A stretch of DNA of 64,000 bases, taken from Promethearchaeota archaeon (GTDB lineage Archaea; Asgardarchaeota; Thorarchaeia; Thorarchaeales; Thorarchaeaceae). The stretch spans positions 11,723 through 75,722 of the forward strand of contig JBHLPF010000010.1 in NCBI GenBank assembly GCA_048939765.1. Direction: 5' to 3'. This document shows positions 52,432 to 58,522 of the stretch, one piece after another. The notes beneath the pieces are model-generated. The model had not been told where the DNA came from, did no database searches, and saw nothing but the letters and a program-made list of their open reading frames with translations. The position numbers were made by a program, and so were the translations under genes. How positions within the stretch are numbered: the first letter of the stretch is position 1; each line of letters opens with the position of its first letter.

Positions 52432-52554
52432 ATGATTGTGGTTCTTACGAAAAGAATTATGTGCATTGATGTGAACCAACTTGTAGATACGTAGTGTGTG
52501 GAACTAGAGACTTGGGTCATTGTTACAGTATCTATTTCCTAGGAGAGTTTGAAA

Positions 52555-53166
52555 ATGAGCGATTCCCGATGGACACGTTGGTATAAGGCGGTCCTCATAG
52601 GCGATGGAGCCGTCGGGAAGACAAGTCTCAAGAGAAATTACCTTGGCGAGGACTTCATGGAAGGGCATCTTCCTACAATTGGCGTCGACTTTGCGCAAAA
52701 GACAATCGAATATGAAACTGGCACTGTAAAGTTCATCATTTGGGACCTTGCGGGTCAACCATCCTTTGAAAGGGTGAGGCGTCATTACTATCAAGGAGCG
52801 AACGGAATTTTCCTCGTATATTCCGTTAATGACAGGAAGTCATTCGACAATGCCACCAAGTGGCTGGTTGAGGCTTACAGGTATATGGGTAGTCTGCCTC
52901 CAACAATTGTGATAGCAAACAAGGTAGATCTCCGTCCCACTGACCATGGCGAATCCATGATCTCCACTGAAGAGGGTATCAGATTCGCGAGTTTCTACCG
53001 AGAACGAATGGAAGTTCCAACATCATTCAGAGAGACCTCAGCTCTCACTGGTGAAGGAGTTCAGGATGCTTTCAGCGAACTCATCAGCCTGATGAGTGAA
53101 ACCGGGGAGGTCAACATTCCCGAGCAGGCAGAAGTACGAAAGACAAGTTCTGAAACAAAAATCTAA
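52555..53166 (+). CDS. Rab-like small GTPase (paralog 1 of a tandem pair)
   Basis: G1 is GDGAVGKTS, switch I is LPTIGVDF, G3 is WDLAGQ, G4 is ANKVDL and G5 is ETSALTG. The ATG at 52555 has AGGAGAG 7 nt upstream. Confidence 0.9.
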   Translation: MSDSRWTRWYKAVLIGDGAVGKTSLKRNYLGEDFMEGHLPTIGVDFAQKTIEYETGTVKFIIWDLAGQPSFERVRRHYYQGANGIFLVYSVNDRKSFDNATKWLVEAYRYMGSLPPTIVIANKVDLRPTDHGESMISTEEGIRFASFYRERMEVPTSFRETSALTGEGVQDAFSELISLMSETGEVNIPEQAEVRKTSSETKI

Positions 53167-53304
53167 ATTGAAAAGTCATTTGGCACAATAGCACTAACCT
53201 TATCTTGTGTGCTGTAACTGAAATTCGTCAGCATGTCCTAGGGAGCACCCGAGTGCGCTTAATAAGGGCAAATGAATGCATTGACGAGCATGGAGATGTG
53301 GTAA

Positions 53305-53892
53305 TTGCGAGACCAGGATGATGGAAGCTTAATCTACAAAGCGGTTCTAATCGGCGACGGAGCAGTTGGAAAGACATCCATACGTCGCAATTATCTGGGG
53401 GAGGACTTCATTGAGGGCCACCTTGCAACAATAGGAGTTGACCTCGCGACCAAAAAAGTGGTCTTTGGCGAGAACGTCGTGAAATTCATCATCTGGGACT
53501 TAGCAGGCCAGCCAACCTTTGAGAAGGTACGGGGTCACTATTATCACGGATGCAACGGGATTGTGCTTGTCTATTCTGTTGTCGATCGAGACTCCTTTGA
53601 CAATGCCTCCAAGTGGTTGGTTGAAGCTTTCAAGAATATGGGACCCCTGCCTCCTACAGTAATTGTAGGGAACAAGATTGATCTTCGACCTTTGCGGTCA
53701 GCAGACAAGATAGTGACCACTGATGAAGGTCTGAAATTCATGGAGTACTTCATAGATAAACTTGGAGTTCCTGCCATCTTTAGAGAGACCAGTGCAAAGA
53801 CAGGCGAGAACATCCTTGATACATTTGAGGAACTTCTTCGCATGATGTCTGAGGCTGAAACTGGAAAAGAGTCTGACAAATTCGTTGGCTGA
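53305..53892 (+). CDS. Rab-like small GTPase (paralog 2 of a tandem pair)
   Basis: G1 is GDGAVGKTS, G3 is WDLAGQ, G4 is GNKIDL and G5 is ETSAKTG. It has a TTG start. It shares long identical runs with the upstream paralog. Confidence 0.9.
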   Translation: MRDQDDGSLIYKAVLIGDGAVGKTSIRRNYLGEDFIEGHLATIGVDLATKKVVFGENVVKFIIWDLAGQPTFEKVRGHYYHGCNGIVLVYSVVDRDSFDNASKWLVEAFKNMGPLPPTVIVGNKIDLRPLRSADKIVTTDEGLKFMEYFIDKLGVPAIFRETSAKTGENILDTFEELLRMMSEAETGKESDKFVG

Positions 53893-54039
53893 AGTATCCA
53901 AGAACCCTGCAAATTCAATTCATTTACCTGAAGTCTAGCCCTAGGAAGGCGTGTACTGTTTAGAAGACGCGTCATTCCGAATACGCCCCATGTTTGCTGG
54001 TCGCTTGCCGAATCGATTTATGCGAAATATTTCAATTTG

Positions 54040-54116
54040 GATATATCGTGTTCGATACATATATAAAGCATGGTGGTGATTATAATACAGTCCCGATATA
54101 TCCTTCCGGATATAAA
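54040..54116 (+). promoter_or_regulatory. two phased GATATATC dyads upstream of the small YHS gene
   Basis: The first pair is GATATATC at 54040-54047 with GATACATA at 54054-54061. The second pair is GATATATC at 54095-54102 with GATATAAA at 54109-54116. Each pair is offset by exactly 14 bp. TATA-like boxes overlap the second half-sites. Confidence 0.45.
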
Positions 54117-54216
54117 CAGTCTTGGGAAATCTGAGCAAGGGCTCATGCCGCAATAAAACGATTGTCAGCGTTCACAGATCCTGATGGCTGCATTAAAGGG
54201 ATTGCAGGTGAATAAA

Positions 54217-54369
54217 ATGCCGAAATGTCCAGTTTGTGGTATGATGGGAAAACCCCACATTAAATCAACCTACAAGGGGAAGACATACTATTTCATGAGT
54301 TTCCAGCATAAGGAGATGTTTGACGCAAATCCAGAGAAATTCAACCTTGAAGTGGGAGTTGACGAATGA
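54217..54369 (+). CDS. small YHS/TRASH-clan metal-binding protein (variant)
   Basis: The sequence is MPKCPVCGMMGKPHIKSTYKGKTYYFMSFQHKEMFDANPEKF. GGTGA lies 5 nt upstream of the ATG at 54217. The track start at 54184 is also possible. Confidence 0.7.
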   Translation: MPKCPVCGMMGKPHIKSTYKGKTYYFMSFQHKEMFDANPEKFNLEVGVDE

Positions 54370-54423
54370 TCACGGCACTACTCTGATCCAACAACGTAAG
54401 ATCATCCTTGTGCTTTTAATCAG

Positions 54424-54450
54424 CCCCCCACTTCCCCTCCTTTTTTCCCC
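54424..54450 (+). terminator. polypyrimidine / oligo-T tract downstream of the YHS gene
   Basis: The tract CCCCCCACTTCCCCTCCTTTTTTCCCC contains a T6 run at 54441-54446. Archaeal termination commonly uses oligo-T tracts. Confidence 0.35.
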
Positions 54451-54472
54451 ACACGACTCTAATATCTCCACT

Positions 54473-54494
54473 GATATATCCCATTCGATATATT
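54473..54494 (+). promoter_or_regulatory. phased GATATATC dyad upstream of the PadR-TRASH gene
   Basis: GATATATC is at 54473-54480 and GATATATT at 54487-54494, a 14-bp offset. The second half-site merges into the TATA-like sequence ATATATTTATATT. Confidence 0.45.
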
Positions 54495-54680
54495 TATATT
54501 TCTCCACTCAAAGTTCTTGCTAAATTGGCGTACAGATAGTGAGATCGAGGAATGGCCCCAGCAAATACGCAACTTTTATGGGGCTGATGCCTTAATAGAG
54601 CCGCAGTTGTTGCAGAGAATCCCTGGAAGCAAGACGCTGCGGACCACAGGTAATTCGGGCTCCAAAAGGGTGTTAGTACA

Positions 54681-55151
54681 TTGGCAGAAGAGAAGGCAAT
54701 CCAGAAAATGAAGGAAGCGGATCTTGACATACAAGAAATGCTGGCTGATTTTTCTCAATTCTATATAATATTGATGTTGAACGAGAAACCCTCGCATGGC
54801 TATGGTCTCATGAAGGGATTTGAGCGCCGAACGGGGAAGAAACTGAGTCCCGGAACACTCTATCCGTTTCTACAACAACTTGAAGAAAAGAAACTAGTTA
54901 CCCAGAAGCAACAGGATGTTGGAAAGAAACGGAAAATCATCTACTCGTTGACAAAGAAAGGCAAGACATTGAGTGACCGGCTGTTCAAGCGTTTTGCAGC
55001 AATTACTGCTTCTGCACTTGGATCCAGTCTTGAGGTGTGCGCAAGCTGTGGTGCCCGGATCTATGAGGGTAGCCATCACGAAATAGTGGATGGAACTAAT
55101 CTTGCCTTTTGTTGTATTCATTGCGCAAAGGCCTTCAAACAGAGCTTATAA
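54681..55151 (+). CDS. PadR-type wHTH fused to a C-terminal TRASH metal-binding domain (candidate copper-responsive regulator)
   Basis: The PadR core is ILMLNEKPSHGYGLMKGF...GTLYPFLQQLEEKKLV. The C-terminus CASCG-x20-CCIHC (nt 55038-55148) fits C-x2-C-x19-22-C-x3-C. The start is TTG at 54681 or ATG at 54708. Confidence 0.8.
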   Translation: MAEEKAIQKMKEADLDIQEMLADFSQFYIILMLNEKPSHGYGLMKGFERRTGKKLSPGTLYPFLQQLEEKKLVTQKQQDVGKKRKIIYSLTKKGKTLSDRLFKRFAAITASALGSSLEVCASCGARIYEGSHHEIVDGTNLAFCCIHCAKAFKQSL

Positions 55152-55196
55152 CCTGTGACTACGGGCCCGCATCAGGAGTAGCCAGAACTAAATACT

Positions 55197-55218
55197 TATA
55201 TATCGTACACGATATATC
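55197..55218 (+). promoter_or_regulatory. phased dyad / perfect palindrome in the copA promoter
   Basis: TATATATC is at 55197-55204 and GATATATC at 55211-55218, a 14-bp offset. ATATATCGT-AC-ACGATATAT forms a 9-bp-arm inverted repeat. The first half-site doubles as a TATA box about 60 nt upstream of the copA ATG. Confidence 0.5.
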
Positions 55219-55262
55219 GGATAGGACATTAACTAGTAGGCTTCCTACCAGGGTGAAGAGAG

Positions 55263-58118
55263 ATGGCTCAGAAAGTTGAAACTGAAGCAAAGGCGTCAAG
55301 AATATCAATGCGCATTGAAGGAATGCATTGTGCCTCGTGTGTAGCCAAAATCGAGGACGCTTTGACAAATCAGGACGGAGTAATAAAAGCCAGCGTTAGC
55401 TTGCTTGATGAAAAAGCTGTTGTTGAATACGAATCTAATTTGGTGGATAGAAGCGTTTTAGAAAAAGCTGTAGAGTCAACTGGTTATCGTGCACGACGGC
55501 CAACAATGTCCATCACCCTTAACGGAGCCTCATCTTCTCTAGATTGGAATCTGATCATGAAAACCATGGAGCAACTAGAGGGAGTCATTACTGCTCGCGA
55601 ATTCAGGGACACCAGACGCATTTTGATTGAATATGATGATGAGCAACTGACCTACAAGATAGTTAGAAAAACACTGAAGGGCATTGGAGTTGAAATCGAG
55701 GAGGCTGCAGGAATTGAAGCAGATCGAGAATCCCTCGCTAGAGAGAAAGAAATCCACTATTATTCCCGTCTACTTGCATTCTCAGTTTTGTTGACAATTC
55801 CCGTCGTGCTTATCCACTTTGGCACTCTAACTTCGCTGTTTCCATCTGAAGAGCTGAGGAGGCTTCTCATGTTCCTTCTTGCCACGCCGGTTCAATTTAT
55901 TGCAGGTTACCCCTTCTACAAGTCAGCTCTCAAGGCGGCACGCCATTTTACTACAAATATGGATACGCTCATAATGCTGGGCACAAGCGCGGCTTACTTT
56001 TACTCGGTGGCAACTACCTTCTTGCCACAATGGAATGTTTACACGCCATTCTATGATTCAGCAGTTCTTCTTCTTAGCTTCATCCTACTTGGTCGAACTC
56101 TCGAAGCAATTGCAAAAGGACGCACGTCAAAAGCGATGCGAAGTTTGATGGATTTGCAGGCCAAGGTCGCCACAATTTTACGGGATGGCGAGGAAATGAT
56201 ACTCCCTATTGAAGATGTTGAAGTCGGAGATATAGTCCTGATAAAGCCTGGGGACAAAGTCCCAGTAGATGGCGAAGTCATTGATGGTCAGTCGAGTGTT
56301 GACGAGTCGATGATAACAGGAGAGCCAGAACCAGTCAAGAAGAAAGTAGGCGATCCAGTAGTTGGTGCAACCATCAATAAGAATGGCGTTCTTCGAGTCA
56401 AAGCAACTAAAGTTGGAATGGACACCGTCTTGTCTCAGATTGTCAAGCTTGTCGAAGAGGCTCAAACAAATAAGCCGCCTATTCAGCGAAAAGCCGACGC
56501 TATAGCGAGTAAATTCACGCCTGTTGTCATTATATTGGCGATTTCAACTTTCATTTTCTGGTTGTATATTTCCCCCATTCTGAATATAACTGACCCAATC
56601 TCGCGCGAATTTGTTGAATGGACACAAGCCCTGACCTTCAGTATTGCCGTACTTGTAGCAGCCTGCCCCTGTGCTTTGGGACTGGCTACTCCAACGGCAA
56701 TCATGGTCGGCATAGGAAAAGGAGCGCAGCATGGTATTCTGATAAAAGCTGGAGAAGGCCTTGAAGTCATTCCAACTGTTGACGCAATAGTATTCGACAA
56801 GACGGGTACTCTCACGATCGGAAGGCCCACGGTAACAGATTTGCACACATACGGAGATTACAGTGATGCAGAAGCTCTGCGACTCATCTCATCGGTGGAA
56901 AAGAACAGCGAGCATCCTCTAGCCGAAGCAGTAGTAAGATACACCGAAGAGCTTGGAATCAACATCCCGAATGCGTCTGATTTCGCCTCAACGACTGGAA
57001 GAGGTGTCCAGGCATTGGTAGAAGGACAGTTGGTTCTTGTGGGCAATGATAAGTTCATGAGAGAGAATTCCGTGGAAATTGCAGATGCTGAAGCCCAAGG
57101 ACTGATGCTACAGGAGAAAGGAAAGACGACCATCTTTGCCGCAATTGAAGGCGAGATGCTTGCACTCATAGGCATTGCTGACAAGCTCAAAGATACCTCC
57201 ATCCAAGCAGTTGAGAGCTTGAAGAGAATGGGCATAGAAGTGTGGATGATTACGGGCGATAAAGAGGCAACTGCACTAGCAATAGCAGAAACCGTTGGAA
57301 TTGACAAAGTGCTTGCAGAGGTTTTGCCAGCTGATAAAGCTGAGAAAGTCAAGGAACTGCAGCGCAGTGGATTGACTGTGGCAATGGCAGGTGATGGCGT
57401 CAACGATGCAGTTGCGCTTGCGCAAGCTGATGTCGGCATTGCGTTGGGGTCCGGAACTGACGTATCAGTTGAGACCGGTGATATCGTTCTTGTTAAGGAC
57501 AATTTGCTCGACGTGGTCACTGGAATCCAGCTGGGCGGGAAGACAATGTCTAAGATAAGGCAGGGATTCTTCTGGGCATTAATCTACAACATAGCGCTGC
57601 TTCCGCTTGCTGCAGGACTGTTGTTTCCGTCAGCTAACATTGTGTTGCGTCCAGAGGTTGCAGGTCTCGCAATGGCATTATCAAGTGTCAGTGTGGTGAC
57701 CAATGCATTGACACTCAATCGGTTCAAGCCTGAGCGTGCAACGCATCTGATTGGAAGTGTACCTCCCGCCGCCTATCAGGAAGGCGATGTCGCTGTCGAC
57801 CCGATCTGCAAGATGAAAGTGGAGATAGCGACGGCAGACCTATTCAGCGACTACAAAGGCAAGAGGTACTACTTCTGCAACCAATACTGTAAGGACACAT
57901 TTGATGGGAACCCTGCAGAGCATGAGGAGGTGACGGATACGGAAGAAGAGATTCCAAAGGTCGCAGTTGACCCTATCTGCAAAATGGACGTGGATGTGGC
58001 CACAGCTGAGCTGTTCAGTGACTTCGAGGGAAAGAGGTACTACTTCTGCTCGCTCAATTGCAAGCAGACCTTTGATGCAGACCCAGAGAAGTATCGCGAC
58101 CAAGATGCCAGAGTCTAG
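55263..58118 (+). CDS. copA: copper-translocating P1B-type ATPase with N-terminal HMA, degenerate second HMA and two C-terminal YHS domains
   Basis: Motifs GMHCASC (HMA), TGEP, CPC ([12 protein letters not shown]), DKTGTLT, SEHPLA and GDGVNDA are present. The tail carries DPICKM...KRYYFC twice. GGTGA lies upstream of the ATG. Confidence 0.95.
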
Positions 58119-58138: not shown

Positions 58139-58522
58139 TTAGTCAGCATCGAGCTTGAATTCCTTGCCGCAATTCTGGCATACCACCCTTCGTCCTTCCA
58201 GAATCTTCGATTGATAGTAGTAATAGCTGGCACCACAGAAGTAGCAAGTGCCCCAATTCTCTGGATGCTTGGCAATGTCAATCTCATGTTCTACTGTTTC
58301 AACATCCCACCTCGGACCAAAGTATGTGAAGGTACACTCTTCATCTGATGGGCCTCTCTCAATTGTTATGACAACAGGTATGAATTTTTGATATCCTTGC
58401 GTGTACCCAACATAGTATTCAATCTTGAATCCATCATTGTCCCAAACCCTAGAATATACGGTTTGATAGCGCGCAGCCAACCTCCCCATAAGCGCCTCTG
58501 CGCTCTCTCCGGTGAGTTTCAT
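58139..58522 (-). CDS. small protein with C-terminal zinc-ribbon, unknown function
   Basis: The 127-aa protein contains CYFCG-x19-CQNCG near its C-terminus. I recognise no other motif. Confidence 0.5.
   Translation of the reverse strand: MKLTGESAEALMGRLAARYQTVYSRVWDNDGFKIEYYVGYTQGYQKFIPVVITIERGPSDEECTFTYFGPRWDVETVEHEIDIAKHPENWGTCYFCGASYYYYQSKILEGRRVVCQNCGKEFKLDAD

Follow-up and report, generated by a model that had tools for sequence, protein, structure and literature searches.

A 64,000-nt stretch of the Promethearchaeota contig JBHLPF010000010.1 (hereafter the window) carries a gene, padR-TRASH, whose predicted product joins a PadR-type DNA-binding domain to a C-terminal TRASH-type metal-binding domain. 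The open reading frame occupies 54681..55151 on the + strand, opens with a TTG codon and encodes 156 aa, and, as stated in the original prediction made from this DNA, it lies between the gene for a small YHS protein on one side and copA on the other. Because of this context, the candidate operators and the predicted regulon, we infer a role in copper sensing: the protein is probably a repressor that responds to Cu(I)/Ag(I) and controls its own gene, and that the metal would release from its DNA or remodel. In silico we see a conserved two-domain architecture that is linked to cop genes, and an operator motif that is co-inherited with the protein. Metal binding by the TRASH domain is predicted, as is the sign of regulation, with metal relieving repression.

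Judging from sequence comparisons, it is very probable that PadR-TRASH represents a class of archaeal copper sensor not described before. We also lean towards a broader proposal, in which these proteins would form an undescribed family of archaeal Cu(I) metalloregulators, the first PadR proteins with a dedicated metal-sensor domain, that has displaced the Lrp-type regulator CopR in many Asgard and Bathyarchaeia lineages and controls a compact copper regulon through GATATATC-N6/7-GATATATC.

Domain architecture of the PadR-TRASH protein

The Pfam PadR model (PF03551) matches residues 30-96 (54768..54968, + strand) at 60.6 bits, against a cut-off of 27. The invariant columns of the family and the Foldseek fold matches agree with a PadR winged helix-turn-helix (wHTH), as had been claimed from the strings KPSHGYGL and GTLYPFLQQLEEKKLV, which are found at residues 36-43 and 58-73, respectively. 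Among 30 diverse full-length relatives (46-82% identity), every one is matched by the PadR hidden Markov model (HMM; 30/30). The recognition helix reads S-P-G-T-L-Y-P-F-L-Q in the window protein; in the family alignment S56, Y61, P62, F63 and L64 are invariant and Q65 is nearly so, and family-wide the helix is near-invariant as S-[PA]-[GS]-[TL]-[LV]-Y-P-F-L-Q. The models HTH_24, HTH_AsnC and AsnC_trans_reg gave no match in the window protein at E-values up to 1.

In the full-length AlphaFold2 model (predicted local distance difference test score, pLDDT, of 84.7), the secondary structure shows a long helix at residues 92-114 (54954..55022, + strand) that joins the wHTH to the TRASH domain. The top Foldseek matches of this model are Rv3488 (5zi8), LmrR (3f8b) and TA0346 (3elk), each over ~100 residues with target template modelling (TM) scores of 0.7-0.85. 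A wHTH followed by one long C-terminal helix, in a core of ~110 aa with an LmrR-like fold, marks subfamily-2 PadR proteins, and this is the arrangement that we find. As modelled, helix 92-114 corresponds to the C-terminal dimerisation helix of the LmrR-type (subfamily-2) proteins, and would likely serve in dimerisation here as well.

The predicted TRASH-type metal-binding domain spans residues 119-156 (55035..55148, + strand) and has the arrangement C120-x2-C123-x20-C144-C145-x-H147-C148. The Cys residues are at positions 120, 123, 144, 145 and 148 (the C120 codon is at nt 55038-55040), and the last motif, C-C-I-H-C, holds one additional Cys and one His inside. The C-terminus had been said to fit the TRASH pattern C-x2-C-x19-22-C-x3-C (domain definition from Ettema 2003), and we indeed find C-x2-C-x20-C-x3-C, invariant in the family. 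The form in which it had been written, CASCG-x20-CCIHC, has the TRASH spacing right but is off by one, as only x19 is left once the G is written out. The five Cys residues and H147 are invariant in the 30 relatives, and likewise in 68 C-terminal segments. Relatives at only 30-40% identity keep C-x2-C...F-C-C-x2-C, with the His substituted in some.

The Pfam clan to which TRASH belongs comprises YHS, Arc_trans_TRASH, TRASH_HVO_1752_C, Ta0938, zf-FCS and L24e. Within the family, TRASH_HVO_1752_C is matched by 29/30 members (best E-value 4.5e-8) and Ta0938 by 28/30, while zf-FCS, ATPase-cat_bd and L24e are matched sporadically. The HMM check of domain architecture that had been proposed thus places PadR above its cut-off and supports TRASH family-wide (29/30), though the window protein by itself is sub-threshold; its weak L24e match, at residues 119-154, is also under the cut-off. 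When a profile of the domain was compared with the PDB, it retrieved Ta0938 (2FQH; CALCGA...FCCDICAAEF) with an E-value of 0.0027, and eL24. The C-terminal domain alone, modelled by AlphaFold from a 68-row alignment, reached a pLDDT of 91 and consists of a knuckle, a β-hairpin and a helix. Foldseek matches this model to the N-terminal zinc ribbons of eL24/Rlp24 (query TM 0.7-0.79, root-mean-square deviation ~1.9 Å, 41-45 columns) and also to the ‘TRASH domain of ZMYM5’ (2das), so that, as modelled, the domain has an eL24-like zinc-ribbon/treble-clef fold. With hhalign it aligns to YHS domains of the window and related loci (71%, E-value 3.8e-5) and, gap-free and with the FCC doublet included, to the TRASH domains of Lrp-type CopR from other Asgard genomes (85%, E-value 6e-6). 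Because family HMM matches, Cys5-His invariance, predicted fold and profile alignment agree, we accept the C-terminal module as a CopR-type TRASH domain on profile and model grounds.

The F-C-C-x2-C doublet is also present in the TRASH domains of the Lrp-type CopR genes of other Asgard families (L083-L088 in our locus numbering), and it may be a mark of regulator-type TRASH as opposed to chaperone-type YHS domains (F-C-x3-C). In the Bathyarchaeia members (L031-L080) there is one more Cys, frequently accompanied by a His (CAHCGC...FCCxHC).

At the aligned start position, 5/9 close orthologues have ATG. In loci L005 and L009 an in-frame stop follows the aligned TTG, and their genes necessarily begin at the Met equivalent to M10; starts at 54681 and at 54708 are therefore both possible for the window gene, and the choice affects neither the PadR nor the TRASH domain. 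A gene-fusion artefact was ruled out, as a single frame is intact in most matches. Stops are read through in a few matches, and where these were inspected (L005 and L009) they are N-terminal.

Candidate operators, predicted regulon and distribution

The candidate operator is the palindrome ATATATC-N6-GATATAT, which is made up of two GATATATC octamers placed 14 bp apart. The window holds six sites with up to two mismatches, all of them within 54027-55217 and at the three cop promoters, against 0.22 expected; none of 100 shuffles gave six. The three DNA sites that had been proposed as targets (55197-55218, 54473-54494 and 54040-54116) are therefore real, and far above chance. The whole 3.37-Mb assembly has six sites with up to one mismatch, of which five are in the cop locus. 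The sixth, ATATATCAGTGATGATATTT on contig C23 (11772-11791; L081:4001-4020), lies ~60 nt upstream of the gene for a 273-aa multi-pass membrane protein, and may either belong to the regulon or have arisen by chance.

Upstream of the YHS gene, the predicted operator cluster O1 (54027..54060) has three GATATATC-like octamers in a 14-bp register, which form two overlapping ATATATC-N6-GATATAT sites with one mismatch each. It is followed by a TATA-like sequence, ATATATAAA, read at ~54058-54068, and then, ahead of the YHS start codon, by predicted operator O2 (54096..54115; ATATATCCTTCCGGATATAA, one mismatch). Predicted operator cluster O3 (54460..54493), upstream of padR-TRASH, combines a perfect site, ATATATCCCATTCGATATAT (54474-54493), with an overlapping two-mismatch site, and abuts a TATA-like TTTATAT at ~54494-54501. 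Across ten orthologous loci the O3 half-sites and TATA box are invariant and the spacer is variable. Finally, predicted operator O4 (55198..55217) is a perfect ATATATCGTACACGATATAT that ends 46 nt before the copA ATG; its left arm shares bases with the TATA-like box of copA, CTTATATA (55195-55202), and it reaches towards the expected start site.

These sites are conserved well beyond the window. O4 is retained between padR and copA in L001-L015, and an operator precedes the orthologues of the YHS mini-protein gene in L001, L003 and L011. In Thor, Hermod and Loki loci the half-sites are constant and the spacers variable, both in front of padR and in the padR-copA interval. In Bathyarchaeia identical half-sites with an N7 spacer precede padR, including at loci that have no copA close by. 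Roughly 150 sites were located in all. A site with up to one mismatch lies within 330 nt upstream of padR in 47/78 loci, compared to a background of 7 sites per 250 kb of distal flank, and six Asgard copA loci with Lrp-type CopR contain neither the palindrome nor any GATATATC octamer. The motif thus tracks the PadR-TRASH protein and not copA, and this is the strongest indication at hand that the protein binds the motif. We also see that the near-invariant recognition helix is matched by an invariant operator half-site. From these sequence patterns we take the palindrome to be the probable binding site of the PadR-TRASH protein.

The leader between operator and padR contains a box, GGCAACTATTATAGG, that hardly varies within the close Thor/Hermod clade; it occurs at ~54566-54583 of the window as ACGCAACTTTTATGGGG and might act as an additional, proximal promoter. 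Relatives further away have the operator just 14-84 nt from the padR start. Rfam returned nothing in 53800-55400 and RNAalifold no pairs in nine orthologous leaders, and on these grounds a riboswitch or structured leader between operator and padR start was rejected.

The survey of the architecture across archaea that had been recommended finds a padR-TRASH relative in 462 species genomes, and the locus comparisons given here cover the best 80 loci of these. A CopA-type ATPase lies within 6 kb in 49/80 loci and directly adjoins in 43/80, usually downstream on the same strand in Asgard archaea and usually divergent in Bathyarchaeia. The genes preceded by the motif in relatives are mostly copper genes, namely padR-TRASH, CopA, two His-rich CopB-like ATPases, two kinds of YHS mini-protein and HMA mini-proteins. 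A few others encode a small wHTH protein, a ~160-aa membrane protein and a 369-aa membrane protein that looks FtsX-like.

Some individual loci deviate from the common layout. The Thorarchaeota locus L005 (6480-6910) lacks copA downstream of padR-TRASH, apart from a remnant of the C-terminal YHS region; the same contig also has a second padR-TRASH/copA locus, L028. In the Bathyarchaeia locus L070, padR-TRASH is found between a flavin adenine dinucleotide (FAD)-oxidoreductase-like gene and a gene for a 960-aa secreted protein. Bathyarchaeia-type loci also occur in metagenome-assembled genomes (MAGs) titled ‘Firmicutes bacterium UBA3567’ (L055) and ‘uncultured Nitrospiraceae bacterium’ (L067), which probably reflects mis-binning or mislabelling of contigs and not a presence in bacteria.

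The best homologues of the window protein are labelled Thorarchaeota or Hermodarchaeota, from which an Asgard origin of the window follows. Within the window's phylum a full-length relative is encoded by 68/201 sampled genomes, in 28/59 genera. Lrp-type CopR with Arc_trans_TRASH occurs in ~17 genomes of the same sample, which belong to other families, and the two types coincide in a single genome, so the family spread of the two regulators is nearly complementary. Arc_trans_TRASH has no match in the window's own genome, which is 88.5% complete; another TRASH-like match there, on contig C94, is a small degenerate L24e-like protein and was rejected as a regulator. In a library of 1.8 billion proteins clustered at 50%, 104 clusters match at E-values up to 1e-10, and ~70 of these align over both domains. 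The overall distribution looks like a non-orthologous displacement in which the DNA-binding chassis was exchanged and the sensor retained.

The neighbouring genes are consistent with the cop assignment. The YHS mini-protein gene (54184..54369, + strand; Pfam YHS 35.1 bits, cut-off 30.3) encodes 61 aa, with an internal Met at 54217 as a possible start, and its product is a putative Cu(I) chaperone by analogy with CopM. This stand-alone protein has altered ligands, with C-P-V-C-G-M-M N-terminally and F-M-S-F-Q-H in place of the F-C-x2-C of the CopA YHS modules. Its orthologues in L001, L003 and L011 retain the variant; other relatives have canonical D-P-[IV]-C-G-M...F-C-x2-C YHS mini-proteins, some with an RRGCCG end. 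The copA gene (55263..58118, + strand) encodes a P1B-type Cu(I) ATPase of 951 aa that scores 610.8 bits, against a cut-off of 397, with TIGR01511, the model for Cu-type P1B ATPases. An HMA domain (GMHCASC) is found at its N-terminus and a pair of YHS domains at its C-terminus, and the sequence contains CPC-x6-P, YN-x4-P and M-x2-SS motifs. Directly upstream of the cop cluster are tandem Ras/Rab-like small GTPase genes (52549-53892), the second of which matches Pfam Ras at 134.6 bits; such genes are typical for Asgard genomes. Converging on the copA 3' end is a gene on the - strand (58139-58522) whose 127-aa product has a zinc-ribbon-like motif, CxxC...CxxC, at its C-terminus and weak zinc-ribbon HMM matches.

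Proposed mechanism and alternative readings

In the mechanism that we propose, PadR-TRASH would act as a one-component sensor of Cu(I), and probably also of Ag(I), built from a subfamily-2 PadR winged-helix dimer and a CopR-type TRASH domain. When copper is absent the dimer would occupy (G)ATATATC-N6-GATATAT(C). As these palindromes overlap or flank the TATA boxes of the YHS-chaperone gene, padR-TRASH and copA, its presence would block TBP/TFB or RNA polymerase. Cu(I) bound by the TRASH domain, through the four canonical ligands together with the invariant extra Cys and His, would shift the arrangement of the wHTH domains and lift repression, such that chaperone, regulator and exporter would be co-induced. 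The extra Cys and His may permit Zn-to-Cu(I) exchange or a polynuclear Cu-thiolate site, by analogy with CopY (see below). A role of TRASH in the copper response has been reported for CopR of Pyrococcus furiosus and Thermococcus onnurineus (PMC7830388).

Several observations weigh against a copper-released repressor. In ~20 Bathyarchaeia loci with full flanks there is no CopA nearby and no copper gene within 6 kb. The padR-proximal operator of the close Thor/Hermod clade is ~190 nt upstream of the start codon, with a conserved leader between, and the AT-rich half-site is TATA-like, so part of its conservation could be promoter conservation. Taken alone, the TRASH domain of the window protein (residues 119-154) scores only 24.8 bits with Ta0938 and 21.8 bits with TRASH_HVO_1752_C, where the cut-off is 27. 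In CP070658.1, the complete chromosome of Thorarchaeota bin8, the padR-TRASH gene (L019, 6001-6453) encodes Tyr for the second TRASH Cys (CASYGARV); this gene is otherwise intact and still followed by copA, and the variant is either a natural ligand loss or an assembly error. Among solved structures, Ta0938 comes nearest to the C-terminal domain in sequence; Pfam describes it as zinc-binding, and the site could thus be structural Zn. The known TRASH regulators, moreover, are activators or dual regulators and not simple repressors (PMC7830388).

The last of these points bears on the sign of regulation. Protein and sites may be as described while the protein is a copper-dependent activator or dual regulator, which stays bound and remodels the promoter on metal. 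P. furiosus CopR remains bound in this way and switches from repression to activation (PMC7830388). Phased arrays of three octamers at several promoters suggest higher-order complexes, and some sites at the padR and YHS promoters are upstream of the TATA box. The copA operator, however, overlaps a TATA-like box and extends towards the expected start, and one YHS site is downstream of the TATA box, positions that are typical of archaeal repression. The characterised PadR proteins (LmrR, B. subtilis PadR, Rv3488) are, as is generally known, ligand-released repressors. We therefore regard activation or dual control as unlikely.

A different doubt concerns the ligand. If the C-terminal domain were a zinc ribbon with a structural role, in stabilising the dimer or contacting DNA, the regulator might sense something else, for instance thiol or redox stress or a different soft metal (Cd, Zn, Hg), or might not respond to metal at all. 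The relationship to Ta0938, a fold equal to the eL24 zinc ribbon and the Bathyarchaeia members that are not beside copper genes fit this idea, as does the PadR protein Rv3488, which was solved with bound ligand and reportedly responds to cadmium. We nonetheless consider it improbable, as the domain aligns best to the CopR sensor TRASH with its FCC doublet, the motif-preceded genes are mostly copper-specific (a P1B ATPase with CPC, YN-x4-P and M-x2-SS, and YHS and HMA chaperones), and the phyletic pattern is complementary to that of CopR. It is also conceivable, on account of the TATA-like half-site ATATAT and an additional small wHTH protein near the motif clusters in L002, L005 and L009, that the palindromes are sites of another factor, or reflect a shared architecture of cop promoters (TATA box and B recognition element), with the targets of PadR-TRASH elsewhere. 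This we judge very improbable indeed: the motif accompanies padR-TRASH even without CopA in Bathyarchaeia, is missing from the six copA loci under Lrp-type CopR, is almost restricted to the cop locus within the genome, and is a strict palindrome of fixed spacing, which is not required of a TATA box. The reading that we prefer is a repressor that responds to Cu(I), acts at these palindromes and controls its own gene.

Significance and comparison with known regulators

To our knowledge, archaeal copper sensing has so far meant Lrp-type CopR only, in a few thermophiles and halophiles. Database entries for the present family are labelled ‘PadR family transcriptional regulator’, and one of them ‘TA0938 family protein’. 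A literature search found no paper combining PadR with a TRASH domain and no relevant one combining PadR with copper or metal sensing, and a search on Ta0938 found nothing relevant. An ordinary PadR protein is up with Cu or Ni in a Halobacterium proteomics paper, where its deletion had no phenotype. PadR-TRASH would place the same TRASH sensor on a structurally different and much simpler scaffold, a presumed dimer, with an unusually well-defined predicted operator and a predicted regulon of mostly copper genes. It may therefore offer a clean system in which to ask how metal binding by TRASH alters DNA binding, a question that the octameric CopR made hard. The architecture also provides an annotation rule for hundreds of MAG genes labelled merely as PadR family regulators, and a cis-element by which copper-responsive genes could be predicted in the genomes of uncultured Asgard archaea and Bathyarchaeia. 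PadR-TRASH exchanges one domain inside a known logic, a DNA-binding domain plus TRASH, and is not a new principle.

One close parallel is CopR/CopT of Saccharolobus solfataricus, P. furiosus (PF0739) and T. onnurineus, which combines an Lrp/AsnC-type HTH, a RAM-like domain and a C-terminal TRASH domain. Both regulators have a C-terminal TRASH domain with C-x2-C...F-C-C-x2-C, both are presumed to be autoregulated, and both are encoded beside copA and a small TRASH/YHS chaperone, which bears out the likeness to the cop cluster noted in the original prediction. That the known archaeal copper regulator is not of PadR type, stated there with caution, also proves right: the Asgard CopR genes beside copA show HTH_24 and HTH_AsnC (in part with AsnC_trans_reg) together with Arc_trans_TRASH. 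With no Lrp/AsnC-type domain detectable, PadR-TRASH is, as had been suggested, a different solution in which the same sensor is carried by another DNA-binding family, a presumably dimeric subfamily-2 PadR chassis instead of the Lrp/AsnC-type one. CopR wraps ~150 bp as an octamer, and the DNA that it recognises is weakly conserved (PMC7830388), whereas the PadR-TRASH family has a sharply defined 20-bp palindrome as its predicted operator.

Among PadR proteins, the window protein resembles LmrR, Rv3488 and TA0346 in HMM match and fold, with a wHTH and a single C-terminal helix. Like subfamily-2 members it has palindromic candidate operators that overlap the promoter, and ligand-released repression is probable. 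The solved members that it matches have no appended metal-binding domain and sense their ligands at the dimer interface. Typical PadR operators read ATGT-N8-ACAT, unlike the GATATATC-N6-GATATATC predicted here. Outside the PadR family, the C-terminal domain has its closest solved sequence relative in Ta0938 (PDB 2FQH), which also has CxxC...FCCxxC, and its closest fold relative in eL24. These are stand-alone or ribosomal proteins with no fused DNA-binding domain, and Ta0938 has no assigned function. Finally, CopY of Enterococcus hirae, a BlaI/MecI-type wHTH protein with a C-terminal CxCx4CxC, would share its logic with PadR-TRASH, as a winged-helix repressor with a C-terminal Cys cluster that controls an operon for a copper ATPase. 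CopY releases its DNA when Zn(II) is replaced by Cu(I), and by analogy a Zn(II)-to-Cu(I) exchange is plausible for PadR-TRASH too, although CopY is bacterial and differs in having an unrelated DNA-binding family, Cys motif and fold.

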